A stretch of 50,725 nt of DNA from assembly GCA_964347095.1 (NCBI GenBank), contig CAYFXD010000144.1:1-50725 (forward strand), written 5' to 3'. The notes below the pieces were generated by a model. That model made no database searches. It saw only the letters and a list, made by a program, of their open reading frames with translations, and was not told where the DNA came from. Shown piece after piece: positions 15,946 through 48,701 of this stretch. Made by a program: the position numbers and the translations under genes. The DNA comes from an uncultured Actinomycetota bacterium (GTDB lineage Bacteria; Actinomycetota; Aquicultoria; Subteraquimicrobiales; CAYFXD01). How positions within the stretch are numbered: the first letter of the stretch is position 1; the number at the start of each line of letters is the position of its first letter.

Positions 15946-16405
15946 ATGCCTAAGATGGACGGGCCGACAGCGATCTAAATCATCCGCGAACGCTGCCTGG
16001 CTACACAGTTTATTGCACTGACCAGCTTCCAGGAGGAAGATTCTGGTGCAAGGAGCTCTTCAAGCAGGAGCAATTAGCTGTCTGTCAAAGAATGTCTCCG
16101 CCAACGAACTGGCTGAAGCAGTACGAGCTGCTCATGCGGGCCGCTCGACTCTGGCGCCGGAAGCAACAGAGGTTTTGGGGAAGACAACCGGCAAAGGACC
16201 TCGACCTGGCCATGACCTGACGGCTCGCGAGCACGAGGTATTCGGTTTGATGCTCAAAGGGCCGAGTAATCCCGAAATCGCCAAGAAGCTGTTCGTCAGT
16301 CCTTCGAAGATAAAATTCCACGTGAGTAGCATCCTTAGTAAGTTGCAGGTTACGACCCGAACGGAAGCCGTTGCCCTGGCTATTCAGCATAAACTGGTCG
16401 ACTAG
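15946..16405 (+). pseudogene. NarL/FixJ-type response regulator remnant (5'-truncated, TAA and frameshift) with intact LuxR-type HTH
   Basis: MPKMDGPTAI-TAA(15976-15978)-IIRERCLATQFIALTSFQEED, then a frame change near 16040-16046 to VQGALQAGAISCLSKN... followed by LTAREHEVFGLMLKGPSNPEIAKKLFVSPSKIKFHVSSILSKL. No beta1-alpha2 part and no acceptor Asp are found upstream. Confidence 0.7.
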
Positions 16406-16674
16406 GACTTGGAGACCGAAGTGCAAAATGCGGAGCGAAGAATTCAAAGAAACAGCGCAAAATGCATGATGATCGTCTCTCTGCCCCGGTATTCTGTGGT
16501 TTCATGGTTCGGGCTTTGCGCTGTTGTTTGGCCTTTGTGTTTTGAACTTTGAGCCTTTGTCCCGACCGTGAACAGGTTTTCAAGCGTACACTGCGTGGCC
16601 GGTTGCAAAACAGGCGCAGTCGAGGATAATAGCAACTAGTGCGACGCTCTTGCAGAAATCATTTGGAGGGTTCT

Positions 16675-29363: not shown

Positions 29364-29548
29364 GTGGTCTGCTTTGCTATCGTATCTTAATACCCTCAGT
29401 TTCTGTGCACCCTGGTGTAGATAGTTCATCTGTACTTGAGAGCAAAAGGTAATTGCACAATTCAACAGCGCTGTGATAATATATTTAGGCAATCTGCCTT
29501 TATTAAACAGTGTGGTTAGGGGTAGAAGATCAACGTTTGATTGCTGTC

Positions 29549-29570
29549 CTGAACTCAACGGTGAGTTCAG
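29549..29570. repeat. perfect 9-bp stem / 4-nt loop hairpin
   Basis: CTGAACTCA-acgg-TGAGTTCAG, inside the ~700-bp stretch without a convincing gene. Confidence 0.85.
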
Positions 29571-30070
29571 ATTTAGTGACATGCGCAATGGTGCGCCGGC
29601 TTCGCCTTAGAGGTCTTGATTGGTCTGCAAGGTTTCTCCTGTCTGCTCTTAGCCTGCTCTTAGGAAATTTCTTCATTCTTTTCCCAAAGGCACATAGCAA
29701 TCAAACATCCAGTGTGCTCAAAAAGCACAAGGAGGGTCAAGGAGAAGAGTTTGAGGCTGCTCAGTCCAGCACCGTGAATAGGCACCGTAATCGGTCTCCT
29801 ATTTGGTTTCTTGTCTTGGACTTTGGTCGCCATTGCCTTGGCAGCTGCAGGTTCTTCGTCCGTTCCTCTTCGCAAGCTGAGTGCGCTCTAAATCACGTCT
29901 ATGAGACCATGCTTTTCCACTAACGAGCCTTTTCCATGACTGCAAAGGTTTGCTCTGGCACGTACGCAGATTAGACCCTGCATTGTGGTGTTCATACCTG
30001 CTTATGCTTCATGGAGACTCGCTGTCCGGCGACTGGCGCGAGTTCATTGAATGATTTGAAAGGAGGCATA

Positions 30071-30559
30071 TTGAAACGAGTGAGTGAGGTACAGTGCGAT
30101 TGCGAAAGAGTGAGGGAAATAGTGGATACATATGACTGCAGCCGTGACAACCTCATCTCAATACTGCAGGACATACAATGCGAATATCAGTACCTACCGG
30201 AAGATGCACTCAGAGTTGTGGCACAGCTGCTGGATCTTTCTTATATCCAAGTCTATGGTGTTGCCACCTTTTTCAAGGCATTTAGCCTTGAGCCAAAAGG
30301 CAAGCATATAGTCAGTGTTTGTCTTGGAACTGCATGTCATGTGCGAAACGCACCTCATGTTCTCGATGAGCTAAGAAGGGAACTTTGCATTGAACCCGGC
30401 GAAACAAGCGAAGATATGCAGTTTTCCCTGGAAACAGTCAATTGTTTAGGCGCGTGTGCATTGGGACCAATCATGGTTATTGATGGCACATATCATGGAG
30501 AAATGAACACCGGAAAGGTAAAAAAGGTTCTCAGAACTATGAGAAGGAATGCAGAATGA
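30071..30559 (+). CDS. NuoE/HydC-like thioredoxin-fold [2Fe-2S] subunit
   Basis: [41 protein letters not shown] and [17 protein letters not shown] (the C-x4-C ... C-x3-C cluster motif). AAAGGAGG lies 5 nt upstream of TTG 30071; the ORF is open from 30011. Confidence 0.85.
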
Positions 30560-32421
30560 CAAAAAGCATGACGAAACTTGGATCGGCAGCTGAACTCGAA
30601 CAAATGCGGGATCGCATACTATGCAAACCAGAAAAGATCTACATCTCAATCTGTAGCGGTACTGGCTGTCATGCATACGGATCTGATGAAGTTGCCGCGG
30701 CATTTCGTGACGCGATAGCGCGACAAGGGATGAGTAATCGGATCGGATTGAAGGTGACAGGCTGTCACGGTTTTTGCGAGCACGGGCCATTGGTTGTAGT
30801 TCACCCCAAGAGAGTGTTTTACCACAGGGTCACTCCAAACGATCCCGCCGAAATAATCTCAGAGACAATTCTGAACGGAAGGATTATCGAAAGGCTCCTT
30901 TATAGTGATCCTGTGACTCAGCAAAGAACATATTTTGAACACGAAGTTCCCTTTTATAAGAAGCAGCGCAGGCTGATCTTCGGCAATAATGGGCTAATCG
31001 ATCCTCATAGAATTGAGGACTATATTGCAATTGGCGGCTACTCAGCACTGAACAAAGCACTTTTTGAGATGGACGCTATGCAGATTATTGAAGAGATTAA
31101 GCGATCCGGCTTGCGGGGACGCGGTGGAGGCGGTTTTCCCACAGGTAGAAAGTGGGAGTCGTGCCGCAATGCTCCCACCTTTGACGGGACTCGTTATGTA
31201 ATCTGCAACGCTGATGAAGGTGATCCGGGCGCCTACATGGACAGGAGTCTTCTTGAAGGCAATCCTCATGGTGTAATAGAGGGGATGATCATCGGCGCAC
31301 TCGCAATCGATTCACATTCTGGATACGTCTACGTGAGGCACGAGTACCCACTTGCCGTGCGGAATCTCAACATAGCATTAGAACAGGCCAGAGAATTAGG
31401 TCTTCTGGGCAAAAGTATTCTTGGATCCAGTTTTGATTTCGATATCAAGATTTCGCGGGGCGGAGGTGCCTTCATCTGCGGCGAATCAACTGCACTAATG
31501 GCATCTTTGGAGGGCAAAATAGGCGAACCGCGTCCGAAGCATATTCACACTGTTGAGAGCGGGCTCTATGGCAAGCCGACGAATCTCAATAATGTTGAAA
31601 CCTGGGCCAATGTACCGCTAATAATCGATCGCGGTGCGGAATGGTACTCGCAAATAGGCACGGAGAGAAGCAAAGGCACTAAGATATTCTCTCTGGTGGG
31701 CAAGATAAACAATACAGGACTGGTTGAGGTGCCAATGGGCATCACGCTGAGGGAGATAGTCTACGATATCGGAGGAGGAGTTCCTGACGGCAAGAAGTTC
31801 AAGGCTGTCCAGACAGGTGGCCCGTCGGGAGGTTGTATTCCTGAAAGTCTGCTTGATACTCCCGTCGATTTTGACAGGCTTGTTGAAGTTGGATCGATGA
31901 TGGGCTCAGGCGGGATGATTGTTATGGATGAGACCACTTGCATGGTTGATGTAGCGAAATATTTCGTCAAGTTCTTGACTGAAGAATCCTGCGGCAAATG
32001 CGTTCCTTGCCGCGAAGGACTGGATAGAATGCTTGATATTCTTACGGACATCACGGAGGGAAACGGCAAGGAAGAAGACATCGAACTCCTGGAGGAGATC
32101 GGAGAGATTGTTGGCGAGACTTCCCTCTGCGCTCTGGGTGGCACTGCTCCCAACCCCGTTCTCTCAACTATCAGGTACTTCGGAGAAGAATATGAGGCTC
32201 ATATAAAAGAGAAACGCTGCCCGGCAGGCGTCTGCAAGGCGCTGATCAACTTTGCTATTGACCAGGAAAAATGCGATGGGTGCGTACTGTGTGCAAAAGT
32301 CTGTCCACAAGAAGCTATTTCAGGTGAGAAGAAAGAACCCCATAAGATCGATCAGGAAAAGTGCATAAAGTGTGGGCTCTGCCGTGATAATTGCAGATTT
32401 GAGGCGATAATAGTTGCATGA
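30556..32421 (+). CDS. NuoF/HydB-like NADH- and FMN-binding subunit with an N-terminal [2Fe-2S] domain and a C-terminal 2x[4Fe-4S] ferredoxin domain
   Basis: N-terminus [12 protein letters not shown]...[28 protein letters not shown] (FMN/NADH site). [12 protein letters not shown] (N3-type cluster). C-terminus [12 protein letters not shown] and [15 protein letters not shown] overlap with the upstream gene. Confidence 0.9.
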
Positions 32422-32434
32422 AGAAGGAGAATGT

Positions 32435-33100
32435 ATGGTTGAGTTAACTATAGACGGGATAAGAACGAGTGTGTTGCCAGGAACCAGTGTTCTTGAAGCA
32501 GCTAATGAAATGGGTATTACTATCCCAACTCTCTGCTATGACCCCGGTTTAAGCTCCTTTGGCGGATGTCGTGTTTGTGTGGTTGAGGTGGTTAAAGGCA
32601 ACCGCTCATCACTTGAAGCCTCTTGTACTCTGCCGGTTACTCAGGGGCAGGTGATCCTCACGAATTCGAAGAGAGCCACAAAGGCGCGCAAGGTTATCGT
32701 CGAGCTCTTGCTTGCTTCCTGCCCGAGTTCCAAGACGCTTCAGGATTTGGCGGCGAATTTCGGAATTAACAAGATTCGCTTCAAGGTAAAAGACAGGGGC
32801 TGTATTCTATGTGGCCTATGCGTGCGCTACTGCAAAGAGCAGATGAAATCAGGAGGTATCGGATTTGTTGACCGTGGCACATCGCGGAGGGTGGCAACTG
32901 CTTTTGGTGCTACTCCGGAAGAGTGCCGGAATTGTGGTGGCTGTGAGTGGGTATGTCCGGTATGTGAACGGGCGTGCACAGCGGGCGACCTCATTGATGG
33001 TCTTTGTGGAGGATGTCAGAATCTGATACCTGTCGAAACGTGCTCAGTATGCATAAGATGCTCTGAGAGTGTTGGTGCCAAAGGCCATAAGACTTATTAG
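32435..33100 (+). CDS. NuoG/HydA N-terminal-like ferredoxin ([2Fe-2S] plus [4Fe-4S] motifs) lacking any catalytic domain
   Basis: MVELTIDGIRTSVLPGTSVLEAANEMGITIPTLCYDPGLSSFGGCRVCVVEV (plant-type 2Fe-2S start of NuoG/HydA), CILCGLCVRYC, CRNCGGCEWVCPVC, and a Cys-rich tail. It is only 221 aa. GAAGGAG lies 5 nt upstream of ATG 32435. Confidence 0.8.
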   Translation: MVELTIDGIRTSVLPGTSVLEAANEMGITIPTLCYDPGLSSFGGCRVCVVEVVKGNRSSLEASCTLPVTQGQVILTNSKRATKARKVIVELLLASCPSSKTLQDLAANFGINKIRFKVKDRGCILCGLCVRYCKEQMKSGGIGFVDRGTSRRVATAFGATPEECRNCGGCEWVCPVCERACTAGDLIDGLCGGCQNLIPVETCSVCIRCSESVGAKGHKTY

Positions 33101-33158
33101 GGTCTAAAGTCAAAAGGTACTTTTGAAATATAGGAACGCGAACAAGAGGAGGTAGAAG

Positions 33159-34736
33159 ATGACCCTCACAAGGTATAATGCATCAGCGGCAGTATTAACC
33201 AAGAACAGAACGGGCGGCGATTGGTGCCCTATAAGCGGGATGTGTGTCACCTGCGTGGAAGGGTGCATTGGTATGTGTGACATCGGAAAGAGCGCATACC
33301 GGGGCTCAGAAGTTATCTATCCGCAACCTTTCGGCATTATAACCACTGCGTCACAGAAGGATTATCCTGTCGACCTATCACACTTCAATATCATGGGAAC
33401 AACAGTGGGAGCTGTCGGTGTTGCAGAGGATTCTGACAAATGTATCTTTCCAAATGTCAATCTGGAGACGAAGCTTGGCAGCAATGAGGGTATTAAATTG
33501 CGTTTACCCATTGTTATCCCAGGGCTGGGTTCTACAAATATTGCCAAACAGAACTGGGAAGGATTAGCGATAGGTGCAGCTCTAACTGGCACTGTGCTCA
33601 CAATCGGTGAGAATGTGTGTGGAATGGATGTTGAATCACGCATAGTCAAGGGACGAGTAGTTAGTTCACCTGAGCTCGAAAGACGGATTAGACTTTTTAA
33701 CGATTGGCAAAGTGACGGATACGGTGCAATTGTCTTGCAGGCCAATGTCGAGGACACCAAGCTGAATGTGCAGGAGTATGCGATCGAGAAACTCGGAGTT
33801 GAGGCGGTTGAACTAAAATGGGGACAGGGGGCAAAGGATATTGGTGGCGAGGTCAAGATCAAGAATCTCGAGAAGGCGCAACTGCTCAGAAAACGGGGTT
33901 ATGTTGTGCTTCCTGACCCGCTGGATCCGGAGATAGTAGAGGAATTCAACAAAGGCGTCTTTACGGAGTTTGAAAGGCACTCACGAGTTGGCATGGTAAC
34001 TGAGGAAAGTTTTATGGAGCGTGTCGAAGAATTAAGAAAAGCAGGGGCCAAATACATAACACTAAAGACGGGCGCCTACAGACCCGCAGATCTGGCGCGT
34101 GCGGTCAAGTATGCTTCGATTGCCAAAGTAGATTATCTAACTGTTGATGGAGCAGGAGGAGGCACAGGCATGAGTCCTTGGCGTATGATGAATGAATGGG
34201 GCGTGCCCGGCATTGAACTCTGGTCGTTGCTCTATCAGTATTGCGAGCGCTTGGCTAAAAGAGGTAAATATGTCCCCCATATTGTACTTGCCGGTGGATT
34301 TGCCCTGGAGGACCAGGTATTCAAAGGGCTTGCACTATGTGCACCCTACACAAAGGCAATTGGCATGGCACGAGCACCACTTGCAGCGGTTATGGTTGGC
34401 AAGACTATTGGCGAAGGCATAAGTAGCGGAGAGCTTCCCATATACCTGCAGCGTTTTGGTACGACAAGGGAAGCCATTTTTGTTACGGCGGAAGCGCTAA
34501 AACGCAAATATGGCAAGGACTATGAGAAAATACCAACCTCTGCCATAGCGCTCTATACGTACTACGAGCGGCTTGCTCAGGGTATGCGGCAGCTAATGTG
34601 TGGTGCCCGCAAGTTTGCCCTTGAACATATTAGTCGTGATGATATTGCTGCACTAACTCCGGAAGTGTCGAGAGTTAGCGATATACCGCTGGTTTCAGAT
34701 CTTGATGCAGAAGAGGTTGAGAATATCTTGGGATAA
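33159..34736 (+). CDS. stand-alone FMN-binding glutamate-synthase-domain (GltB central domain) family protein, paralog 1
   Basis: LKWGQGAKDIGGEVK, VDGAGGGTGMSPW, VLAGGF...VFKGLALCA as in the GltS FMN domain. N-terminal CVTCVEGCIGMC. AGGAGG lies 6 nt upstream of the ATG. Confidence 0.85.
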   Translation: MTLTRYNASAAVLTKNRTGGDWCPISGMCVTCVEGCIGMCDIGKSAYRGSEVIYPQPFGIITTASQKDYPVDLSHFNIMGTTVGAVGVAEDSDKCIFPNVNLETKLGSNEGIKLRLPIVIPGLGSTNIAKQNWEGLAIGAALTGTVLTIGENVCGMDVESRIVKGRVVSSPELERRIRLFNDWQSDGYGAIVLQANVEDTKLNVQEYAIEKLGVEAVELKWGQGAKDIGGEVKIKNLEKAQLLRKRGYVVLPDPLDPEIVEEFNKGVFTEFERHSRVGMVTEESFMERVEELRKAGAKYITLKTGAYRPADLARAVKYASIAKVDYLTVDGAGGGTGMSPWRMMNEWGVPGIELWSLLYQYCERLAKRGKYVPHIVLAGGFALEDQVFKGLALCAPYTKAIGMARAPLAAVMVGKTIGEGISSGELPIYLQRFGTTREAIFVTAEALKRKYGKDYEKIPTSAIALYTYYERLAQGMRQLMCGARKFALEHISRDDIAALTPEVSRVSDIPLVSDLDAEEVENILG

Positions 34737-34831
34737 TGCATACCAAAAGGACTAGCGTAGATTCCCCAAAACTGCCAACTCGGCATTTGTAAAGCTTGCA
34801 GCATATTACTTTACATCAGGTGAGGGGATGC

Positions 34832-34860
34832 TTGACAAGCTCTCATTAGCTTGGTAAATT
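34832..34860 (+). promoter_or_regulatory. candidate sigma70-type promoter
   Basis: TTGACA (34832-34837), a 17-nt spacer, then TAAATT (34855-34860). Confidence 0.35.
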
Positions 34861-35118
34861 CTTTCATATATAATAGATCAGAGACACAACGGTGTGTCAA
34901 AGAACCGACGAGGGCGTCCTTGGAAAGGATGTTCTTTTTTATGACTTCTGGATTATAGATCTGTAAATCAAGGAATATTCGGTTGAGGTGGGACCACATG
35001 GGGCTTTTTGCTGGACAGGGTGCCTCTCGACTGTACCTCTTCAGTTCTTCTCCTTGACTCCCAATTAGGAGTCCTACTACTCGCAGATTTCGAAGAGTGG
35101 AAGACCGCGTCCGAACCA

Positions 35119-35147
35119 TGAACATATATCTGCGAATTTGCTATAAT
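35119..35147 (+). promoter_or_regulatory. candidate extended -10 promoter upstream of GltB-like paralog 2
   Basis: TGAACA, a 17-nt spacer ending in TGc, then TATAAT (35142-35147). It lies about 200 nt upstream of ATG 35350. Confidence 0.45.
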
Positions 35148-35349
35148 CTGCAGCGAGTGGAATCTCCCAAAAAGTCTTGTCTTAGTCTTGCGGACTATAG
35201 GTTTGTCTGCATCTTGTATGGCAATCCGAATTCTACCTGTTAATGTGCTTAATGTCATAGGGAAAGCACCGGTTTGCGCTGGGCGCCAAAAAAGTGTTCT
35301 GTGAAGTGGGATTGGAAAGATAATACATAATTGAGGGAGGTTGGCAACC

Positions 35350-36939
35350 ATGAATTTGAGACAACCAAATGCTAATTCAGCAACAGGGACATTCAATCGT
35401 TCGAGAAGTGTTGTGCCCATGTCTGGAATCTGTACAGATTGTCTTGATGGATGTAAAGGCGGCTGTGAGATCTGGCTTTCTTCGTTCAGAGGGAGGGAAG
35501 TTCTCTATCCGGGTCCTTTTGGGCATATTACCGCTGGTGCTGATAAGGATTATCCCATTGACTACTCTCATCTAAGTATCCAAGGGTATGCTGTTGGTGC
35601 CAAAGGGATGCCCGAGGGCGTTTTGCCTGGACCTGATAGTTCAGTCTTCCCGTGTGTCAACACTGAAACAGAATATGGGTGGGAACGAAAGGTTAGAATG
35701 AGCTTGCCCATCTTTAGCGGGGCTTTGGGTTCTACGGATATTGCCCAGATCAACTGGGAGCATTTTGCCATAGGGGCTGCTATCTCGGGCATTACCCTTG
35801 TATGTGGTGAAAATGTATGTGGTGTCGATCCCCGACTAGAACTGGATAGTAAAGGCCAGGTTCAGAATTCGCCAGAAATGGATCGCCGAATAGAGACATA
35901 TAGGCGGTTCCACAACGGTTATGGGGAGATACTTATCCAGATGAATGTGGAAGATAAGAGGTTTGGAGTGGCTGAGTATATATTGCGAAAGCATGATCTG
36001 CGTACGATTGAACTGAAATGGGGACAGGGTGCGAAAAACATTGGAGGAGAGATAAAAGTCAGACAAATCGAAAGAGCCGTTGAGCTTAAAAGGAGAGGAT
36101 ATCTGGTTACCCCGGATCCAACTCTTCCTGAGATCCGGAAAGCATTCGAAGAAGGAGAAATCAAAGAATTCGAAAGGCATTCCCGGCTGGGATTCGTAAG
36201 CAAAGAGGGTTTTCTGGCAGAGGTCCAGAGACTTCGGGACCTTGGATTTGAGAGGATTACACTCAAGACCGGCGCATATTCCATGGTAGAACTGGCTATG
36301 GCGCTGCGGTATGGAGCCGAAGCGGAACTCGATCTTATTACAATTGATGGGGCTCCGGGCGGCACAGGCATGAGTCCTTGGCCGATGATGAACGAATGGG
36401 GGATCCCTACATTCTATCTGCAGTGCCTTGCCTATGAATTCTGCGAGCAACTCAGCAAGCGAGGAATCAGAGTTCCTGACATAGCTGTGGCCGGAGGATT
36501 CTCCACTGAAGACGGTGTCTTCAAGGCAATTGCTATGGGTAGCCCCTATGTCAAGGCAGTGTGCATGGGCAGAGCATTGATGATTCCTGGTATGGTTGGC
36601 AAGAACATTGAAAAATGGTTGAACGAGAACAATCTGCCAAAGACAGTCTCCAAGTATGGGACAAGCAAAGAGGAAATCTTTGTCAACTACGAAGAATTGA
36701 AGAAGGAATATGGCAAGGAAACAAAGAATATGCCATTGGGTGCAGTCGGTATTTACACGTTTTCTCACAAGTTCAGAGTGGGCCTGCAGCAGCTCCTGGC
36801 TGGCAGCAGAAACTTCAATCTGTCCACTGTTACGCGCAATGATGTTATGGCTCTCACCAGGGAGGCATCTGAGATCTCTGGAATTCCGTATGTGACCGAT
36901 GCATATCGCGAAGAAGCGGAACGCATTCTGACCGAATAG
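35350..36939 (+). CDS. stand-alone FMN-binding glutamate-synthase-domain (GltB central domain) family protein, paralog 2
   Basis: LKWGQGAKNIGGEIK, IDGAPGGTGMSPW, VAGGF...VFKAIAMGS. N-terminal CTDCLDGCKGGC. By eye it aligns end to end with 33159-34736 at roughly half identical positions. GGGAGG lies 9 nt upstream of ATG 35350. Confidence 0.85.
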   Translation: MNLRQPNANSATGTFNRSRSVVPMSGICTDCLDGCKGGCEIWLSSFRGREVLYPGPFGHITAGADKDYPIDYSHLSIQGYAVGAKGMPEGVLPGPDSSVFPCVNTETEYGWERKVRMSLPIFSGALGSTDIAQINWEHFAIGAAISGITLVCGENVCGVDPRLELDSKGQVQNSPEMDRRIETYRRFHNGYGEILIQMNVEDKRFGVAEYILRKHDLRTIELKWGQGAKNIGGEIKVRQIERAVELKRRGYLVTPDPTLPEIRKAFEEGEIKEFERHSRLGFVSKEGFLAEVQRLRDLGFERITLKTGAYSMVELAMALRYGAEAELDLITIDGAPGGTGMSPWPMMNEWGIPTFYLQCLAYEFCEQLSKRGIRVPDIAVAGGFSTEDGVFKAIAMGSPYVKAVCMGRALMIPGMVGKNIEKWLNENNLPKTVSKYGTSKEEIFVNYEELKKEYGKETKNMPLGAVGIYTFSHKFRVGLQQLLAGSRNFNLSTVTRNDVMALTREASEISGIPYVTDAYREEAERILTE

Positions 36940-40781: not shown

Positions 40782-40948
40782 TGATCAAGGAAAGGTAAAG
40801 AAAACAATGGAAGATCAGGGAAAGACCGGGGAGTACGGAAGAATCCAGCAAAGCTATCGAAGCTAATACACGAGCGCTTCAATCCTCAATATTGCCTTGT
40901 TCTCCTGCATCTTCCCTGATGCTGTCTGAACAAAAGGGGTGTTGCACT

Positions 40949-41866
40949 ATGGAAAAAGCTGGGGAAATGGGCTTTATCGGGCTGGGCCGGATGGGTTTGA
41001 ATATGGTCAGTCGGATACTAGAAAGGAAGAAAGTCGATATAGTTGCCTGGGACCGTTCACCGGAACCACTGCGACAGGTTGTTGAGAAAGGGGCAACCGG
41101 AGCCGGTGCGCCTGAAGATATAATGGTTGAGCTGCAGCAGGACAGACGCGTTGTCTGGTTGATGCTGCCTGCCGGTGACGTTACGGAAACCTATTTCCAG
41201 ACGCTGCTGAAAATGATGGATCCCGGAGATATCATAATTGATGGTGCAAACTCACATTTCAAGGACAGCGTGCGAAGACATAAAGAAGCCAAAGACAAGG
41301 GCGTGGGCATGCTGGATGTGGGAGTCAGTGGCGGGATTATTGCCGCAAAAACCGGTTATCCTATGATGATTGGCGGAGAAAAGGAAACCTATGAGTTTTG
41401 CCTGCCGGTCTTTGAGAGTCTTGGCGCAGAGGAAGGATGGGATCTGCTGGGAGGTCCTGGTGCCGGTCATTATGTAAAGATGGTTCACAATGCTATTGAG
41501 TATGGGATGATGCAGGCTATAGCCGAGGGTTGCGACCTGCTTGAAAACGGCAGCTATCAGCAGCTCGATCTAAAAGACATCGTTCATGTCTGGAACCATG
41601 GCACCATTATCAGCTCGTTCTTGATGGAGATGGTTGAGCGCGCTTTGGAGAAGAGCCCTGATTTGGATTATCTCAGACCGTTTGTTGAGGATAGCGGAGG
41701 AGACCGATGGGCAACGGAGGAGGCCATTAGCAGGGCGGTGCCTTTTGTGGTAAACAGCTATGCACTTCAAGCCCGGTTTATCTCGCGTGACCAGAATTCA
41801 ACCGCCTTTCGAATGCTGGCAGCCATAAGGCACGAGTTTGGCGGCCATGAAGTGAAGAAAACATAG
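40949..41866 (+). CDS. gnd: 6-phosphogluconate dehydrogenase (decarboxylating), short ~300-aa form
   Basis: GFIGLGRMGLNM, DVGVSGGIIAAKTGYPMMIGG, GAGHYVKMVHNAIEYGMMQAIAEG. Confidence 0.85.
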   Translation: MEKAGEMGFIGLGRMGLNMVSRILERKKVDIVAWDRSPEPLRQVVEKGATGAGAPEDIMVELQQDRRVVWLMLPAGDVTETYFQTLLKMMDPGDIIIDGANSHFKDSVRRHKEAKDKGVGMLDVGVSGGIIAAKTGYPMMIGGEKETYEFCLPVFESLGAEEGWDLLGGPGAGHYVKMVHNAIEYGMMQAIAEGCDLLENGSYQQLDLKDIVHVWNHGTIISSFLMEMVERALEKSPDLDYLRPFVEDSGGDRWATEEAISRAVPFVVNSYALQARFISRDQNSTAFRMLAAIRHEFGGHEVKKT

Positions 41867-42018
41867 ACGCTGGATGCTTGATCCTAGATCCAAGACAAAA
41901 AATCTAAAACCAGGAGACCAGAAGCCTGTGCATCGTCTGGGATCCAGGATCCAGTATATGGTGTCTTGACTGGTCTTCGTTTAAATGCACGCATCATTAA
42001 GGACTTAAGAGGGCATGC

Positions 42019-42729
42019 ATGGCTATGACTATATCCAGCAAGAATAAACAAACACTGGACCAAATGGCGGTAGACATAATCAGCAATTCGACCATGAAGC
42101 TGCTGAAAGACCGAGATTGGGTTGTCCTGGCGATTCCCGGCGGAAGAAGTGTGCGTGGAATTTTTCGACACTTGGTGGAGGAACGCAATATTGGCAAGAT
42201 CCCCTGGCAGAACCTGCAGATATTTATGGCAGATGAAAGACTGGTCCCCATCGACCACAAGGACAGCAATTTCAAGCTGGCCAAGGAGATCTTCTTGGAC
42301 AAAGCGGTGAGCAGGGGAGTTCTGCCTGAAGAAAATGTTCATCCCTTTATTTTGGATACAAAAAAGGCAGATTTTGGAGTTTTTGACTATGAGCGTGAGC
42401 TTAAACAGTATGCGACGGGCTATGACATCGTAGTTCTAAGTGCCGGAGAAGACGGTCACATCGGCGCTCTGTACCCAAATCATCATTCCGTATATGATGA
42501 ATCCGAGTTCTTTTTGTCAATGACCGACTCACCCAAACCACCCAGAGACAGGATGACGCTCTCCACCAACATGCTGCTCAGGTCTGACACGGCTATTGTG
42601 CTCTTTATTGACAAGGCAAAGAAGGGTGCATACCGGGCATTCCTCGACGGTCAATTGGACTATCGGTCATGTCCCGCCAAGCTCGTATTGTCTGTTCATG
42701 ATTCCTACGTAATCACAAATCTTGGATAA
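42019..42729 (+). CDS. pgl: 6-phosphogluconolactonase
   Basis: LAIPGGRS, IFMADERLVP, VLSAGEDGHIGALYPNH. Confidence 0.85.
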   Translation: MAMTISSKNKQTLDQMAVDIISNSTMKLLKDRDWVVLAIPGGRSVRGIFRHLVEERNIGKIPWQNLQIFMADERLVPIDHKDSNFKLAKEIFLDKAVSRGVLPEENVHPFILDTKKADFGVFDYERELKQYATGYDIVVLSAGEDGHIGALYPNHHSVYDESEFFLSMTDSPKPPRDRMTLSTNMLLRSDTAIVLFIDKAKKGAYRAFLDGQLDYRSCPAKLVLSVHDSYVITNLG

Positions 42730-42739
42730 AGGAGCGAGA

Positions 42740-43753
42740 ATGACAGGCCACAACTTATATCGAGGTGAAGTCATCGGTGCGGACGTGGGAGGCACTAACA
42801 TCACTTTGAGCGTGACCAGGTTTCAAAAGGGAATGCCTGAGGTTGTTTTTTCGGAGCGCCACGAAACAGCCGCCATCGGCCAATTTTCCGATTTGGTGGG
42901 TGATTTCCTGAAATCGGCAGGCAAACAAGGTCTCAGACCAAGAAAGGGATGTTTTGCGGTGGCTGGCCATGTCGAACACGCCGATGGGGAACAAAGGGTC
43001 ACCTTGACCAATGCTGATCTTGTCGTGGATTCTGCCGAGATCAAGGCAAAGACGCAGCTTGAAGATGCCTTGGTCATCAATGATTTTGAGGCAATCTCAT
43101 ACGCAACAAACGTGCTGCAACGGGAGCAGTTCATTACGCTAAACAAGGGTAAGGCCAAGGAAAGGGCAACGCGTGCGGTTATTGGGGCAGGGACTGGGCT
43201 TGGAAAAAGCATCCTCCGGTTTCATTCTCGCCTACACACTTATTTGCCCCTTCCCTCCGAGGGTGGTCACGCTGATCTTCCCCTACTTAATAAAGAAGAG
43301 ATCAAGCTCTCCAATTTCATCAGGGAAAAAGCAGGCATCAGGAAGCAACTATCCTATGAAGACGTTCTATCAGGGAGGGGTCTAGAGCGCCTGTACAAGT
43401 ATTTGAGTCAGACTGAATTCCCACAACAACCGGCGGCTCTGTCTGCCAAAAGCATCTCACAAACCGCAGTAACCAATCCTTGCAGCAGGGAGACCTTTTT
43501 GTGGTTCATCCGGTTCTATGCACGGTGTGCGCGCAATTTTGTCTTGGATTCGTTGGCAATAGGAGGATTGTTTATCGCTGGGGGCATTGCTGCCAAGAAT
43601 CCAGATTTTTTTGGGCGTTTTATGGAAGAGTTCATCAAAAACGAGACCTATCAAGCCTTGCTGGAGGATGTTCCGGTGCAGCTTATTACGGACTACTATA
43701 TCAGTCCCGTTGGAGCGGCTTATGCATTGGCGATGCAGATGGAGATAGACTGA
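42740..43753 (+). CDS. glk: glucokinase
   Basis: IGADVGGTNITL, IGAGTGLG, SEGGHADLP, LSGRGLERLYKYL. AAAGGAG lies 5 nt upstream of ATG 42740. Confidence 0.85.
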   Translation: MTGHNLYRGEVIGADVGGTNITLSVTRFQKGMPEVVFSERHETAAIGQFSDLVGDFLKSAGKQGLRPRKGCFAVAGHVEHADGEQRVTLTNADLVVDSAEIKAKTQLEDALVINDFEAISYATNVLQREQFITLNKGKAKERATRAVIGAGTGLGKSILRFHSRLHTYLPLPSEGGHADLPLLNKEEIKLSNFIREKAGIRKQLSYEDVLSGRGLERLYKYLSQTEFPQQPAALSAKSISQTAVTNPCSRETFLWFIRFYARCARNFVLDSLAIGGLFIAGGIAAKNPDFFGRFMEEFIKNETYQALLEDVPVQLITDYYISPVGAAYALAMQMEID

Positions 43754-43767
43754 TAAGGGGGTTCTAG

Positions 43768-45279
43768 ATGTCGCGGGAGAAGTTGGAGAATTGTGCAATT
43801 GTGATCTTTGGTGCGACAGGGGATCTCATGAAGCGAAAACTAATTCCCGCATTGTATCAAATGTATAGGGCCGGAACGATCACCGATGAGTCGCCGATCA
43901 TTGGAATCAGCCGTGAATCAAAGAGCAAGGAAGAGTTTGTTGAACTATTGGAGATTGACAAATTCCTTCCCGAGTGGGATGAAGAAGTTTTGCATCGCTT
44001 TCTGAAGCTGATTCATCACTTGGCGCTGGATCTGACCAAAAAGCAAAGCGCTGAGGAATTATACAAACGATATACGGAGCTAAAGGAAAAACACGGCTGC
44101 AGCGGCAATAAGCTTTTCTATCTGGCGATCCCGCCCGATCTGTTTGGGAACGTCGTTGAGTTATTGGCCTCCAGCAAGCTGCTGGAGGTGCCCGGCTGGA
44201 ACCGTGTGGTTTTCGAGAAACCGTTCGGTCATGATCTGAAGTCGGCAATTGAATTAAATCGATTCATAAAGACGGTTTTCAAGGAGGAGGAGATCTATCG
44301 AATCGACCACTTCTTGGGGAAAGAACTAGTGCAAAGCATTTTGGTTTTTCGCTTTGGCAACTCCATCTTCGAGCAGATTTGGAACAATCAGTGTATTGAT
44401 AATGTGCAGATCACCGTGGCCGAGACGGTGGGAGTTGAGCACAGGGGTCGTTATTATGACAAAGCCGGCGCCATACGGGATATTCTTCAAAACCACATCC
44501 TACAGGTTTTGTCGACGGTGGCCATGGAAGCGCCCAAATCATGGCATGCGGACAGCATAAGAGATCAGAAGGCAAAGATATTCAGATTACTAAAGCCGAT
44601 AGATCCCGAAGACTTGGTGATCGGGCAGTATGATACCGGCCGGATCGACGGAGAAGAGGTAGTTTCCTACCGCATGGAGCCGAGCGTGAACCCCGACTCT
44701 TCCACTGAGACCTTTGTTGCTGCTAAAATACAGCTAAACAACAAGCGCTGGAGGGGTGTTCCTTTTTATGTAAGGACTGGGAAGAGGCTTGAAGTGCGCT
44801 ATTCGGAGATCGACTTGATCTTGCGGGAACCCTCCTCCTCTCTTTTTGCCGGAGAACATATGAATCGCCGTCCCAACGTTGTGACCATGAGAATTCAACC
44901 GGATGAGGGACTGGTCCTCATATTTAACGCCAAGTACCCAGGCCGCGAGATGCGGCTTCAACCAGTCATAATGGATTTCTGCCATAAATGCGAGTTTCAG
45001 ATGTATAGTCCGTCGGCATATCAAACACTCATAATGCAGGTCATGATGGGCGATCAGACGTTATTCGCGCGCTGGGATGGGGTTGAGGCAAGCTGGGAGT
45101 TTATAGAGCCGCTGTTTGATACAGTGAAAGCGCGCGGTGATAAAGTGCCGCTTTACCCCGCGGGAAGCAAGGGCCCAGCAGAAGCCGATGAACTACTGGC
45201 AAAGGATGGACGCAGGTGGATCTTGCCCAAAGAAAGCATAAATGAAAGTCATGAATATGCCAGCTTTTGGGAGGCATGA
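43768..45279 (+). CDS. zwf: glucose-6-phosphate 1-dehydrogenase
   Basis: IFGATGDLMKRKLIPALY, YRIDHFLGKE, RDILQNHILQVL. Confidence 0.92.
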   Translation: MSREKLENCAIVIFGATGDLMKRKLIPALYQMYRAGTITDESPIIGISRESKSKEEFVELLEIDKFLPEWDEEVLHRFLKLIHHLALDLTKKQSAEELYKRYTELKEKHGCSGNKLFYLAIPPDLFGNVVELLASSKLLEVPGWNRVVFEKPFGHDLKSAIELNRFIKTVFKEEEIYRIDHFLGKELVQSILVFRFGNSIFEQIWNNQCIDNVQITVAETVGVEHRGRYYDKAGAIRDILQNHILQVLSTVAMEAPKSWHADSIRDQKAKIFRLLKPIDPEDLVIGQYDTGRIDGEEVVSYRMEPSVNPDSSTETFVAAKIQLNNKRWRGVPFYVRTGKRLEVRYSEIDLILREPSSSLFAGEHMNRRPNVVTMRIQPDEGLVLIFNAKYPGREMRLQPVIMDFCHKCEFQMYSPSAYQTLIMQVMMGDQTLFARWDGVEASWEFIEPLFDTVKARGDKVPLYPAGSKGPAEADELLAKDGRRWILPKESINESHEYASFWEA

Positions 45280-45437
45280 TTGTCATCTGCTGAATAATTG
45301 TTTACGATTGGGGAATCGGCTTGTCCAGCCTGTCGGCTCACGGCTTCCAGAAGAGAATCCAGTTGGCTCAGTTGTGCATGCCGAGAATCATTTCGGGCGG
45401 ATGGAAACCAGAACATTGCGAGACAAAGGATGTACCA

Positions 45438-46079
45438 GTGAAGAATATCATCATTCCGGCACTAATAGCCGAGTCACCGGAGGAATTGTCAAGCATGATC
45501 GAGAAGATGGAGCCTTACTTCGATCTCATGCAACTTGATATTATGGACGGTGGTTTTGTCGGTAATCACTCTCTTGATTTTCCATTTGATCTGCCCGCTG
45601 GCACGCAATACGAGGCCCATTTGATGGTGGAGGATCCGGAAGGATGGATTGATAAGAACTGGAAAAAAGTGCATACTATCTTGGCGCACATCGAAACGTG
45701 CAAGGATCCATCAAACATAATTGAACGATTAAAAGGAATACGAAAAGTCGGCTTCGCTGTTAATCCTGAGACTCCAGTAGAGACGATCTTCGACTACCTT
45801 GATCTAATTGATCAGGTGCAGATCATGACGGTCCATCCGGGACAGTACCGGAGCAAATTCTTGCCCGATGCCTTGAAAAAAGTGCGCAAGCTCAGAGAAA
45901 AGAAGCCGGACCTCAACATAGAAGTTGATGGGGGCGTCAATCCTGATACGATCAAGCAGGCTCAAGAAGCGGGAACAAATATGTTTGTGTCGGGTTCGTA
46001 TATTGTAAAATCAGATGACATTCAGGGGGCGATAAAGACACTGGAAGACATATTGAGAGGTGAGCATGACCGAGATTAG
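45438..46079 (+). CDS. rpe: ribulose-phosphate 3-epimerase
   Basis: LDIMDGGFVGN, HLMVEDP, AVNPETP, IMTVHPGQ, IEVDGGVN, FVSGSYI. GTG 45438 has AAAGGA 7 nt upstream; the ORF is open from 45321. Confidence 0.8.
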   Translation: MKNIIIPALIAESPEELSSMIEKMEPYFDLMQLDIMDGGFVGNHSLDFPFDLPAGTQYEAHLMVEDPEGWIDKNWKKVHTILAHIETCKDPSNIIERLKGIRKVGFAVNPETPVETIFDYLDLIDQVQIMTVHPGQYRSKFLPDALKKVRKLREKKPDLNIEVDGGVNPDTIKQAQEAGTNMFVSGSYIVKSDDIQGAIKTLEDILRGEHDRD

Positions 46080-47853
46080 CGATTTACAGTCGATGGCCAA
46101 CAAGCTCAGAATCCATTCTCTCAAGTCCACAACCGAGGCAGGATCAGGTCATCCGACTTCTTGCTTGTCATGTGCTGAAATAATGAGCTGTCTGTTCTTC
46201 AGCGAAATGGGTCCTAATGACGAATTTGTGTTATCCAAAGGCCATGCAGCTCCCATTCTTTGGGCCGCCTATGCAGAGGCAGGATGTATCCCACGGGAAG
46301 ACCTAATGGACCTTCGCAAGATCGGCAGCGACTTGGAGGGACACCCAACTGCGAGAATGCCTTTGGTCAAAGTCGCCACCGGAAGCCTGGGACAGGGTCT
46401 ATCAGCGGCTGTTGGAATGGCGCTGGCCAAGGGACGGCTTCGGGACAACGATGGCAGGGTCTATGCATTGTTGGGAGATGGAGAGTGTGCCGAAGGCGCA
46501 GTCTGGGAAGCAGCAAGTGTTGCGGACCATTACGGGCTGGACAATCTATGTGCAATAGTTGACGTGAACAGGCTTGGTCAATCCGGTCCGACCATGTACG
46601 GCCATGATGTTGGCAGCTATAAGAGACGATTCGAGGCGTTCGGCTGGCGAGCGGTTGCAATTGACGGGCACAGCGTCGAGGAGATCTTGGAAGCTTTTGA
46701 ACAGGCAAGAAAAGGTCAAAGTCCCTTCGTTATTGTCGCCAAGACGCTCAAAGGAAAAGGGGTATCATTCTTGGAGGACAAGGAAGGATGGCACGGCAAG
46801 CCTGTGAGCCGTGACCAATTAGAGAATGCGCTGGATGAGATGGGAGAGGAAGAAATCGAACTAGCAACCAGAATGGAGCGGCCTCGCGGCCACAGCTATG
46901 ATTATGTTTCCTTTGAGATGACCAAGTATAATCTCGGCGATAAAGTGGCAACCAGAGTAGCATCCGGAAATGCCCTTGTTCGTTTGGGACAAAAGAACCC
47001 GAATGTAGTTGTGTTGGACGGGGATGTAAAGAACTCTACTATGACTCAAGATTTCTTCAAGGCTTTCCCCGATCGATCATTCGAATCGTTTATTGCTGAG
47101 CAGAATATGGTAGGAATGGCCGCCGGATTCTCAGCCGAAGGTTACCTGCCTTTTGTGGCAACATTCTCCACCTTCCTGACCAGGGCTCACGATTTTATCC
47201 GAATGGCCCAATATTCAATGTCCAACATTAAGTTGATCGGCTCGCATTCCGGTGTCAGCATAGGGCAGGACGGCCCTTCCCAAATGGGGCTGGAGGACAT
47301 ACCGATGTTCTTGAGCATGCCCGATGCCGTTGTTCTCTATCCCTGTGACGCTGTTTCAGCCGAGCATCTGGTGAGCGAGATGGCCAGACACAAAGGTATA
47401 TCCTATCTAAGAACTACCAGAGGTGGAACACCGGTCATCTATGAGAATGGTGAAGAATTTCCGGTCGGGGGGCTAAAGGTCCTGAGGCGCAGTGACAATG
47501 ATAATGCACTAGTTGTGGCGGCGGGGGTAACGGTTCATGAAGCACTTGGCGCCTATGACGCCCTAAAAGAGGACATGGTGAATATAAGAGTGGTCGATCT
47601 TTATTCATTGCAGCCCGTCGATGCTGCGTCCTTGGCCAAAAACGCTAAAGAATGTAGCAACAATGTTGTTGTTGTTGAAGATCATTATTGCGGTGGTCTG
47701 GGATCCGTGGTCTCAGCCGCTGTTGACGGAGTGAGACAACTCTGCATCAGAGAGATGCCGAGGTCAGGAAAGCCCGAAGAGCTTAGACATGCGTATGGAA
47801 TTGACTCATCAGCTGTCGTTCAGGCCATCAGGCAAATCCTGAGCAGTTTATGA
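46066..47853 (+). CDS. tkt: transketolase, single-chain short (~595 aa) type
   Basis: GSGHPTSCLSCAEIM, LSKGHAAPILWA, GSLGQGLSAAVGMALA, LLGDGECAEGAVWEA, FIAEQNMVGMAAGF, GSHSGVSIGQDGPSQM. Confidence 0.9.
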   Translation: MTEISDLQSMANKLRIHSLKSTTEAGSGHPTSCLSCAEIMSCLFFSEMGPNDEFVLSKGHAAPILWAAYAEAGCIPREDLMDLRKIGSDLEGHPTARMPLVKVATGSLGQGLSAAVGMALAKGRLRDNDGRVYALLGDGECAEGAVWEAASVADHYGLDNLCAIVDVNRLGQSGPTMYGHDVGSYKRRFEAFGWRAVAIDGHSVEEILEAFEQARKGQSPFVIVAKTLKGKGVSFLEDKEGWHGKPVSRDQLENALDEMGEEEIELATRMERPRGHSYDYVSFEMTKYNLGDKVATRVASGNALVRLGQKNPNVVVLDGDVKNSTMTQDFFKAFPDRSFESFIAEQNMVGMAAGFSAEGYLPFVATFSTFLTRAHDFIRMAQYSMSNIKLIGSHSGVSIGQDGPSQMGLEDIPMFLSMPDAVVLYPCDAVSAEHLVSEMARHKGISYLRTTRGGTPVIYENGEEFPVGGLKVLRRSDNDNALVVAAGVTVHEALGAYDALKEDMVNIRVVDLYSLQPVDAASLAKNAKECSNNVVVVEDHYCGGLGSVVSAAVDGVRQLCIREMPRSGKPEELRHAYGIDSSAVVQAIRQILSSL

Positions 47854-47867
47854 AAGGGGTAAAGCTC

Positions 47868-48701
47868 ATGAAGATATTTATCGATTCGGCAAAATTTGAT
47901 GAGATCGAAGAAGCGTATAGTAGCGGGGCTCTTGACGGTATCACCATCAATCCGTCATTGATCAAGAAAGCAGTGGACGATCTACATGCAAAGGGTGAAG
48001 ACATACAGATGGGCGACTATATAAAGAAGATCTTGCGAACGGCAAAGGGGACCCCGGTAAGCCTTGAAGTTACTGAGTTCAAGTACCAGGGTATGGTGGA
48101 ACAGGGGAGGGGACTCTTTGAAATGTTCAATCCCGTCGCGAACAACGTCTACATCAAGATTCCCGTTAATCCTTCTTTTGAAGGGGAACAGGGCAGAGAA
48201 TTTGAAGGCTTGAAGGCTATTGCCAAGCTGACCAGTGAGGGGATTCCCATCAATTGCACACTGGTATTTACTCCGGAACAGGCTTTGTTGGCCGCCAAGG
48301 CGGGCGCCAAGTTTGTCAGCCCTTTTGCGGGCAGGATTGATGACTACATTCGTAAGATGAACGGCATACCGTTTGAAAAGGGCGACTACTTTCCGGCTGA
48401 AGGCATTTACAGAAACGATGAGTTGTTGGAGGACAACGGCGTGGTCTCAGGAATCGACTTGGTTCAGCAGATAGTAGAAGTATTTGCAGTCCACGATATA
48501 GAAGCCAAGGTTCTGGCCGCAAGCATAAGGAATGCCCGCCAGGCGCGCGAAGCGGCCCTTGCCGGTGCCGACATTGCAACGTTGCCATTCAACGTCATCA
48601 AGGAACTATTTGTTCATTACAAGACGCAAGAGGGAATGAAGTCCTTCACAGACGACATCGTCTTGGCATACGCGGATCTGGTCAAGATAAAGGTGGATTG
48701 A
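47868..48701 (+). CDS. tal: transaldolase / fructose-6-phosphate aldolase family (short-type core with insertions)
   Basis: MKIFIDSAKFDEI, GITINPSL, VYIKIPV (Schiff-base Lys), NCTLVFTPEQALLAAKAGAKFVSPFAGRIDD. Confidence 0.85.
   Translation: MKIFIDSAKFDEIEEAYSSGALDGITINPSLIKKAVDDLHAKGEDIQMGDYIKKILRTAKGTPVSLEVTEFKYQGMVEQGRGLFEMFNPVANNVYIKIPVNPSFEGEQGREFEGLKAIAKLTSEGIPINCTLVFTPEQALLAAKAGAKFVSPFAGRIDDYIRKMNGIPFEKGDYFPAEGIYRNDELLEDNGVVSGIDLVQQIVEVFAVHDIEAKVLAASIRNARQAREAALAGADIATLPFNVIKELFVHYKTQEGMKSFTDDIVLAYADLVKIKVD

Follow-up and report, generated by a model that had tools for sequence, protein, structure and literature searches.

A conserved four-gene operon joins a Bfu-type NADH/iron-sulfur module to a GltB-family flavoprotein: a candidate ammonia-dependent glutamate synthase of anaerobic bacteria and archaea

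Contig CAYFXD010000144.1 of an uncultured Actinomycetota bacterium (assembly GCA_964347095.1) carries a locus of five genes, here called g1 through g5, on its forward strand. The whole stretch of DNA that was analyzed, 50,725 nucleotides (nt) in length, is referred to as the window. A preliminary description of this DNA had listed five forward-strand open reading frames (ORFs) and had read them as a HydBC/NuoEF-type NADH-flavin module wired to two paralogous proteins resembling the flavin mononucleotide (FMN) domain of the glutamate synthase (GOGAT) large subunit, GltB. Re-reading of the sequence bore out the five ORFs, their coordinates, lengths and junctions, and the motifs quoted for them (Table 1). 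The TTG start of g1 at 30071 sits behind the Shine-Dalgarno sequence AAAGGAGG, and the longest possible g1 ORF begins at 30011. The Shine-Dalgarno sequence of g3 is GAAGGAG; g4 follows g3 after a gap of 58 nt and has the Shine-Dalgarno sequence AGAGGAGG. The longest ORF of g5 begins with a TTG at 35341, and the ATG at 35350 is its likeliest start.

Table 1. Features of the locus and an example of a related F subunit from another genome
Feature	Position	Strand	Description
g1	30071..30559	+	NuoE/HydC/BfuC-like [2Fe-2S] subunit; 162 aa; TTG start
g2	30556..32421	+	NuoF/HydB/BfuB-like NADH-FMN subunit; 621 aa; ATGA overlap onto g1
g3	32435..33100	+	Truncated NuoG/HydA-N-terminal (BfuA-like) ferredoxin; 221 aa; 13-nt gap to g2
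g4	33159..34736	+	Candidate catalytic subunit, GltB-family FMN (beta/alpha)8 barrel; 525 aa
Spacer block	34826..34945	+	Sole conserved part of the g4-g5 spacer (aligned with L158 and L160)
g5	35350..36939	+	g4 paralogue with the same 4-Cys motif; 529 aa; ATG behind Shine-Dalgarno GAGGGAGG
Long-F example	L015:6080-9241		NuoF-like subunit with GltD/NfnB-like module; likewise in L017, L025 and L040

Profile searches of all five proteins against Pfam returned exactly the domains that had been predicted. The g1 protein matched 2Fe-2S_thioredx (E=7e-49), and its best NCBIfam matches were HoxE and NuoE, all of them under the equivalog cut-offs. Conservation of Cys and His residues was computed over 59-72 homologues. 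The four Cys of the NuoE-type [2Fe-2S] site in g1 (C84, C89, C125 and C129) were conserved in 98-100% of 59 homologues. The g2 protein matched an N-terminal 2Fe-2S_thioredx domain, Complex1_51K, SLBB, NADH_4Fe-4S and two C-terminal Fer4 domains; the SLBB score of 25.8 bits was slightly under the cut-off of 27. Ligands in g2 were assigned to an N-terminal thioredoxin-like [2Fe-2S] cluster (C33/C38/C70/C74) and to an N3-type [4Fe-4S] cluster (C479/C482/C485/C525). H549, C555 and C560 were placed as three ligands of a 3Cys+His site and were 97% conserved; this site, termed B2, holds Zn or a cluster in the solved Bfu enzymes (PMC11829005). Eight Cys at 573-613 belong to a C-terminal 2x[4Fe-4S] ferredoxin domain, which is kept in the half of the related loci that have a short NuoF-like (F) subunit.

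The g3 protein matched Fer2_4 and Fer4_7 in Pfam and gave partial NCBIfam matches to the N terminus of the A6 FeFe-hydrogenase, to NuoG and to HoxU. It has sites for a [2Fe-2S] and two [4Fe-4S] ferredoxin-type clusters, plus a conserved six-Cys C-terminal tail. Eighteen Cys of g3 are conserved overall, each at 96-100%: residues 34, 45, 48, 64, 123, 126, 129, 133, 164, 167, 170, 174, 177, 181, 191, 194, 203 and 206. Neither Pfam nor the Cys/His conservation revealed a His-ligated cluster motif, a catalytic domain or a molybdopterin-like domain in g3. The NCBIfam equivalogs NuoE, NuoF, NuoG, HoxE and HoxU were all missed by wide margins.

BfuB proteins are defined by a NuoF FMN domain, SLBB, the 4Fe-4S domain of NuoF and a ferredoxin-type 4Fe-4S domain (IPR011538, IPR019554, IPR019575 and IPR017896), and BfuC proteins by a NuoE-type [2Fe-2S] domain, IPR002023 (PMC9304861). 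In addition, BfuB has metal sites with no counterpart in non-bifurcating NuoF, namely the N-terminal [2Fe-2S] (B5), the 3Cys+His site (B2) and the C-terminal B3/B4 (PMC9304861, PMC11829005). The g2 protein matches the BfuB definition through the Pfam equivalents of these domains and through the extra sites B5, B2 and B3/B4. Likewise, g1 fits BfuC by its 2Fe-2S_thioredx match, its four conserved Cys and the ATGA overlap with g2. BfuA is defined by at least 2Fe-2S and 4Fe-4S ferredoxin-type domains, and every BfuA is said to hold clusters A1 and A2 (PMC9304861). Genes g1 through g3 are not the N-module of complex I: g3 is truncated, the NCBIfam cut-offs are missed and the window contains no other nuo gene. 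The view that g1-g3 form a module of the HydABC/Bfu type and not a part of complex I is supported, with g2 carrying every BfuB feature. The nearest relative of g2 and g3 outside the operons with a g4-type gene is a Codh-Bfu-type cluster, locus L130, which at positions 6-4759 encodes Prismane/CooS-like and CooF-like proteins followed by E, F and A subunits, the Codh-Bfu type as predicted in PMC9304861.

The fourth gene encodes the partner of this module, a GltB-family FMN protein and neither a hydrogenase nor a formate dehydrogenase, as had been claimed. The only Pfam match of g4 and of g5 was PF01645 (Glu_synthase), with 46.6 and 64.5 bits against a cut-off of 20.4 and with partial coverage; no NCBIfam model matched either protein. 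The two are 48% identical. Both share an N-terminal CX2CX3CX3C motif, which in g4 is invariant and comprises C29, C32, C36 and C40, the only invariant Cys in the g4 family. The motifs QGAK..GGE, DGAxGGTGMSP and GGFxxED follow one another in g4 and g5 as they do in E. coli GltB. In g4 they take the forms QGAK, DGAGGGTGMSP and GGFALED, collinear with E. coli GltB, and the QGAK lysine and a following Arg are invariant in the family. Membership of g4 in the GltB synthase-domain family is thus supported by PF01645 and by the QGAK and DGGTGxSP motifs, though the relationship is remote. An AlphaFold2 (AF2) model of g4 showed a (beta/alpha)8 barrel with helical extensions (mean predicted local distance difference test score, pLDDT, 77; predicted template modeling score, pTM, 0.81); the N-terminal cluster region and two active-site loops had pLDDT <50.

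A collection with one genome per species was scanned with g4, which gave at least 576 matching stretches, and the best 80 were examined for gene order. Among these best 80, g4 was 67-84% identical over all 525 residues, and the hosts covered more than 15 phyla, archaea among them. They included Dehalococcoidia (Chloroflexota), Planctomycetota, Zixibacteria, Aminicenantes, Acetothermia, Aerophobetes, Elusimicrobia, Armatimonadota, Ignavibacteria, Acidobacteriota, Bacillota, Verrucomicrobiota, Bacteroidota, Desulfobacterota (Desulfatiglans) and KSB1, and two archaeal metagenome-assembled genomes (MAGs; loci L042 and L051), one of them from Methanophagales. The order E-F-Gn-GLTB, which is that of g1 through g4, was recovered by tblastn and ORF clustering in 71-77 of the 80 loci, and the exceptions were mostly contig ends. 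Median gaps were 4 nt between F and Gn, often as a 4-nt overlap, and 31 nt between Gn and GLTB. The reverse test was made with metagenome loci seeded with g3: all close homologues (>=75% identity) with room downstream had a g4-type gene next, and distant relatives (33-44% identity) lay in hydrogenase-type or Codh-Bfu-type clusters without one. When the F cores were placed in a rough neighbor-joining tree, one pure clade took in 69 of the 72 GLTB-associated sequences. Because of the constant order, the short gaps and the F clade, the four genes act as one inherited, co-translated unit, and this conserved unit is exactly g1-g4 (NuoE/BfuC, NuoF/BfuB, truncated NuoG/BfuA and the GltB-family FMN protein). 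The neighborhood survey proposed in the preliminary description has in this way revealed a conserved, translationally coupled operon across phyla. Such high identity, spread over more than 15 phyla and two domains, is generally the sign of a central housekeeping enzyme; the g4 protein carries only the annotation 'FMN-binding glutamate synthase family protein'.

E. coli GltD and the separate domains of E. coli GltB served as tblastn queries against the window, and Pfam searches covered 38 further ORFs (all those of >=150 aa judged likely genes, plus two shorter ones). No GATase_2, central domain, GXGXG domain, GltD or other nuo gene was found in the window by these searches. Moreover, the CX5CX4C motif of the 3Fe-4S cluster, located at 1102-1113 in E. 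coli GltB, was not found in g4 or g5. The locus therefore is not a canonical GltB or ferredoxin-dependent GOGAT (Fd-GOGAT), for which the amidotransferase, CX5CX4C, the central and GXGXG domains and, in the NADPH enzymes, GltD would be needed; it also holds no further complex I genes, and both statements had been made beforehand. Separate GATase and GXGXG genes encoded nearby had been named as a finding that would speak for a split GOGAT. None came to light among about 150 related loci. The tblastn search for them covered +/-4-10 kb around 85 genome loci, including both archaeal ones, and no GATase_2, central or GXGXG domain was found there; the g3-seeded metagenome loci were screened only with the window and L001 proteins. 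With no separate GATase/GXGXG genes flanking the 85 loci, the arrangement differs from that of the archaeal-type split GOGATs and F420-dependent glutamate synthases (FGltS).

Related operons differ in how electrons could enter. In at least 27 of the 80 loci, about 40% of the related operons, NuoF is fused to a GltD/NfnB-like Fer4_20 + Pyr_redox_2 module; these long F subunits have ~1050-1100 aa, and the module replaces the C-terminal Fer4 (2x[4Fe-4S]) domain. We know of no earlier description of a BfuB with a C-terminal GltD/NfnB-like module. GltD is the physiological electron donor of GltB, so the fusion ties the system to GOGAT-like wiring. A further variant is P0363, a protein of 800 aa in which an FrhB/FdhB-like F420 module (with 2x[4Fe-4S]) is naturally fused to a g4-like barrel 36% identical to g4. 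Its motif QGAKPGMGGE stands midway between those of canonical GltB and of g4, and the Cys motif reads CX2CX2CX2C. Since the GltB-like barrel is fused or linked to Bfu, GltD-like and FrhB-like modules, it is a catalytic cassette fed by interchangeable electron-input modules.

The neighborhoods of the related operons contain genes of nitrogen, glutamate and 2-oxoglutarate metabolism. Glutamate dehydrogenase adjoins the operon in 14 loci from at least 8 phyla, and glnA lies near it in at least 6 loci, with amt/P-II also present. Contexts with amt-P-II-glnA and with NrpR-like regulators were found in Dehalococcoidia, the latter in many loci of this group. NrpR is the 2-oxoglutarate-sensing nitrogen repressor of methanogens. 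A pair consisting of a GAF histidine kinase and a sigma-54 activator was present in 23 loci. In an Aerophobetes MAG (L017), two four-subunit 2-oxoacid:ferredoxin oxidoreductase sets plus NfnAB-like genes bracket the operon (553-5590 and 13711-16427). An L-2-hydroxyglutarate-oxidase-like flavoprotein, scoring under its model's cut-off, is a neighbor in Dehalococcoidia. A HisF-like neighbor was considered as an ammonia-channel subunit and rejected; its NCBIfam score passes the cut-off for a true HisF, and it occurs in one class only.

The fifth gene did not bear out the claim that the module is wired to two paralogous GltB proteins; only g4 is a conserved partner. Orthologues of g5 form a separate, equally conserved stand-alone group, with 75-83% identity in Methanothrix, Methanosarcinales, Altiarchaeota, Syntrophales, Elusimicrobiota and Caldicellulosiruptoraceae. 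In three contexts examined, these orthologues were monocistronic with no NuoEFG alongside, and their neighbors were carB and a purF-like amidotransferase, hisHF and purC, or glnA and nfnAB. The g4-spacer-g5 layout was seen only in the window's close relatives (L158-L160). The spacer measures 613 nt, and because a terminator-like hairpin and a promoter-like site intervene, g5 is probably its own transcription unit and not co-transcribed with g1-g4. We therefore rejected g5 as a second subunit of the complex, given its stand-alone orthologues and the hairpin in the spacer. The NADH module would be wired to one GltB-like protein, and g5 would therefore be a neighbor from a sister family.

A consensus scan of the conserved spacer block picked out a promoter-like TTGACA-17-TAAATT; the block also has the palindrome GACACAACGGTGTGTC and, at 34910-34936, a hairpin followed by TTTTTAT. 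This hairpin with its T-run is likely the terminator of the g1-g4 transcript. The palindrome has an ACGG center, the same as in the hairpin upstream of g1. The block might combine a terminator with a site for a regulator, or it might be a small RNA. A second promoter-like site precedes g5 at 35119-35147 in the same type of scan.

Taken together, these data suggest that g1-g4 encode a soluble four-subunit FeS flavoprotein of the Bfu type that would act as an NADH- and ferredoxin-linked, ammonia-dependent glutamate synthase without a glutaminase. We regard this reading as about evenly poised between right and wrong. In the proposed enzyme, g1 and g2 would form the NAD(H)-binding core with FMN, the N3-type [4Fe-4S] and the NuoE [2Fe-2S], and the C-terminal 2x[4Fe-4S] domain of g2 would be the ferredoxin-facing arm. 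The g3 subunit would serve as a wire of [2Fe-2S] and [4Fe-4S] clusters, from which electrons would pass to the N-terminal 4-Cys cluster of g4 and on to FMN in the GltB-type barrel. The presumed reaction is 2-oxoglutarate + NH3 + 2e- + 2H+ <-> L-glutamate via 2-iminoglutarate, in other words the 'synthase half' of GOGAT without the glutaminase half. The nitrogen donor would be ammonia and not glutamine, and electrons would be drawn from NADH and reduced ferredoxin together (confurcation). Its role may be high-affinity assimilation of ammonium at low concentration with no ATP spent in glutamine synthetase, and the reaction may reverse. The g5 protein is probably a stand-alone relative of the catalytic subunit with another donor, such as ferredoxin directly.

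The energetics are in keeping with such a role. Using the textbook equilibrium of glutamate dehydrogenase, we calculated an E0' of about -0.15 V for the couple of 2-oxoglutarate plus NH4+ and glutamate. At 0.01-0.1 mM NH4+ and a ratio of glutamate to 2-oxoglutarate of ~100, our calculated E' falls to about -0.33 to -0.36 V, which is below the cellular NADH couple and near the ~-0.4 V mid-potential level of Bfu cores. At this potential NADH alone would be too weak a reductant, and NADH with reduced ferredoxin via a Bfu core would suffice. With the obligate linkage, the Bfu core, the GltB-family motifs, the GltD-like fusion, the gene context and the modularity, these values make the ammonia-dependent synthase the best-supported reading of the operon.

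Several observations weigh against it. A phmmer search with g4 and a search with the family profile matched no GltB chain in the Protein Data Bank (PDB), and an hhalign comparison of the family alignment to E. coli GltB was weak and covered 81 columns only. Because these PDB sequence and profile searches fail to reach GltB, the g4 family is a deep, compact branch of PF01645 and not a plain excised GltB domain. The earlier statement that g4 and g5 consist only of the GltB FMN domain overstated a likeness that is remote. Foldseek with the g4 model ranked FMN barrels of alpha-hydroxy-acid oxidases first and did not discriminate the substrate. The g3 protein does not have the His-ligated cluster of NuoG/HydA, and the Bfu survey ascribes clusters A1 and A2 to every BfuA (PMC9304861). 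The long-F variant exchanges the ferredoxin-facing domain for an NAD(P)H and flavin adenine dinucleotide (FAD) module, so ferredoxin coupling is not universal in the family. Finally, Pfam searches of the window ORFs found no nitrogen genes flanking the g1-g4 operon in the window.

The remoteness of the GltB likeness and the Foldseek preference for alpha-hydroxy-acid oxidases mean that the same complex could act on another substrate, a different 2-oxo, 2-hydroxy or imino acid or a non-amino-acid acceptor. We judge this somewhat unlikely. The low-confidence active-site loops of the g4 model leave room for other chemistry, and the L-2-hydroxyglutarate-oxidase-like neighbor in Dehalococcoidia would fit it; however, the GltB-specific QGAK...GG and DGxGGTGxSP motifs are invariant, the alpha-hydroxy-acid oxidase motif is absent at the equivalent position (aligned by eye), and glutamate, glutamine and 2-oxoglutarate genes recur in the context. 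A catabolic role is unlikely in our view. Such an enzyme would oxidize glutamate or another amino acid and divide the electrons between NAD+ and ferredoxin, which would then supply Rnf or hydrogen production in anaerobes that ferment peptides. Aminicenantes, Zixibacteria and Acetothermia are regarded as protein or amino-acid fermenters, which counts for this role, and the glutamate dehydrogenase adjoining 14 loci could equally mean catabolism, which counts against the assimilatory enzyme. Pairs of sigma-54 activator and kinase are typical of amino-acid catabolic operons, a 2-oxoacid:ferredoxin oxidoreductase adjoins the operon in L017, and Bfu enzymes can run in both directions (PMC9304861). 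Assimilation is indicated instead by the Dehalococcoidia loci with amt-P-II-glnA and NrpR-like contexts, and by our calculation glutamate oxidation is uphill towards ferredoxin unless the products are very low.

Alternatively, g4 could be the synthase subunit of a split, archaeal-type, glutamine-dependent GOGAT whose GATase_2 and GXGXG parts are encoded elsewhere, and NADH would enter through the NuoEFG-type module in place of GltD. GOGATs whose domains are encoded by separate genes are known, and putative F420-dependent forms have been suggested (PMC3448663, PMC3087415). The glnA gene adjoining several loci is what a glutamine-dependent GOGAT would lead one to expect and so argues against an ammonia-dependent enzyme, and the fusion of GltD-like modules to F is also compatible with a split GOGAT. 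We nevertheless find this explanation quite improbable, given that no GATase_2, central or GXGXG domain was found in the flanks (+/-4-10 kb) of the 85 loci or in the window and that the conserved unit has exactly four genes across all these phyla. In addition, g4 itself has neither the 3Fe-4S motif of canonical enzymes nor the central and GXGXG domains; in known GOGAT, these two domains help build the ammonia tunnel. The last possibility is that g1-g3 are an NADH module split off from complex I or a hydrogenase and lie beside an unrelated GltB-like gene, as detached nuoEFG clusters are often interpreted in genome papers (PMC5736913, PMC6338057). Such coincidental adjacency is effectively ruled out by the gene order and gene overlaps conserved across phyla and domains, by the BfuB-specific domains of g2 beyond those of a true NuoF, by the truncation of g3 and its family-specific Cys tail, and by the lack of nuo or hydrogenase genes in the window.

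The proposed glutamate synthase can be placed among known systems. With the BfuABC/HydABC-type enzymes (FeFe- and NiFe-hydrogenases and the Fdh-, Nfn/Stn-, Wor-, Bam-, Por- and Codh-Bfu), g1-g2 share the full predicted BfuB/BfuC cofactor set: FMN and B1, an N-terminal [2Fe-2S], the 3Cys+His site and, at the C terminus, 2x[4Fe-4S]. The short, BfuA-like g3 would pass electrons to an extra catalytic subunit, an arrangement known from 'Type 2/3' Bfu enzymes. The 2022 survey of Bfu enzymes lists as partners Por, Codh, F420, Wor, Bam, Rub, Fdh, Mbh, Nuo and Nfn, with 17-18 clades unassigned, and neither its text nor its supplement mentions glutamate (PMC9304861). A GltB-family FMN/FeS partner such as g4 is not in that list, and the family further differs from known Bfu enzymes in the six-Cys tail of g3, in the missing His-ligated cluster, and in the BfuB ferredoxin domain being GltD-like in about 40% of the operons. 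Full-text literature searches, in which subscription journals were mostly outside coverage, gave no description of a NuoEF/HydBC/Bfu module with a GltB-like partner; likewise, no characterized enzyme of the same composition turned up, in line with the preliminary description.

The resemblance to GltBD and Fd-GOGAT lies in the membership of g4 in PF01645 with QGAK and DGxGGTGxSP kept, in the logic of FeS to FMN to substrate, in the GltD-like modules of many related operons and in the nitrogen-assimilation neighborhoods. Unlike those enzymes, g4 has no glutaminase, central or GXGXG domain and carries the N-terminal CX2CX3CX3C instead of CX5CX4C, and electron input would proceed via a three-subunit NuoEFG-type module. 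The FGltS of methanogens, composed of FrhB-like and GltS subunits, are putative, proposed and unproven; they were proposed to be glutamine-dependent, with further GOGAT subunits (PMC3448663, PMC3087415). They share with the present family a GltB-like catalytic module with an exchangeable input module, of which P0363 is a direct FrhB fusion. The predicted input here is NADH/ferredoxin through a Bfu core and not F420. The Sporomusa-type StnABC/NfnABC combine NuoE, NuoF and a NuoG N-terminal part with a GltD-like NADPH/FAD module, blocks that the long-F variants share (PMC10482914, PMC11829005). In Stn/Nfn, however, the GltD-like module sits on the A subunit as the third-substrate site; here it is absent (window) or on the B subunit, and the operons always encode an extra GltB-like subunit. 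The component parts and the modular principle are familiar from known enzymes; we know of no precedent for their combination, for how the clusters of the catalytic subunit are arranged or for the likely chemistry.

A tentative extension, possible but doubtful at present, is that a confurcating, glutaminase-independent glutamate synthase is a third major route of ammonium assimilation, with the g5-type and FrhB-fused proteins as ferredoxin- and F420-driven versions. If so, the third route would exchange the ATP of the glutamine synthetase-GOGAT pathway for low-potential ferredoxin and would occur widely among anaerobic bacteria and archaea that live on little energy. If the reaction proposed for g1-g4 is right, metabolic reconstructions of many uncultured anaerobes (Dehalococcoidia, Aminicenantes, Zixibacteria, Planctomycetota and ANME-1) misstate how nitrogen is assimilated and at what energy cost. 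The Bfu family would in that case gain an amino-acid/2-oxoacid couple as a new third substrate, and the notion of a minimal glutamate synthase would need revision, since neither a glutaminase nor an ammonia tunnel would be required and the FeS site would be of another kind.

The ~600 nt 5' of g1 (29470-30070) contain no convincing gene. This DNA is conserved with L158 and L160, relative to which its indels are not multiples of three, and it contains the hairpins or palindromes TGAACTCAACGGTGAGTTCA and GCGCAATGGTGCGC; in L158, pairing of the first leader hairpin is preserved via G-U wobbles. There are hints that the region is an RNA leader. The g1 leader gave no Rfam match even at E<=1, its overall folding was not significantly stable (z = -1.5), and at gathering scores Rfam returned no family anywhere in the window. 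The NrpR operator pattern GGAAN6TTCC was not enriched, with no occurrence upstream of g1 or g5, and the sigma-54 -24/-12 pattern was not above chance, with none in the g1 leader on the + strand.

Elsewhere the window encodes MscL, ABC transporters and a receiver protein and contains shikimate genes and an oxidative pentose-phosphate cluster, with no nuo or hydrogenase genes. The latter cluster (40892-48701) is compact and both oxidative and non-oxidative, encoding 6PGDH-like, 6-phosphogluconolactonase, glucokinase, G6PDH, ribulose-phosphate epimerase, transketolase and transaldolase proteins. A DJ-1/PfpI family protein with weak class-I amidotransferase-like similarity is encoded at 8206-8766 on the reverse strand, 21 kb from the operon; it is the sole amidotransferase-fold gene in the window and is probably unrelated to the operon.

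Some related loci have additional genes. A third GltB-like paralogue, 60% identical to g4, was found in a Dethiobacter alkaliphilus MAG (L023:3099-6554) and in L078. It has IclR-family regulators on both sides and lies just upstream of the E-F-Gn-GLTB operon, and a GltD-FlpD (MvhD-like) fusion protein is encoded downstream. In Planctomycetota and Zixibacteria, the sigma-54 activator and NuoE-like genes flank the gene for a small conserved protein of 102-177 aa without a Pfam match (L040:4727-5182 and homologues, cluster c7, 9 loci). The NuoE of these two groups has a C-terminal extension of ~130 aa past the 2Fe-2S domain.

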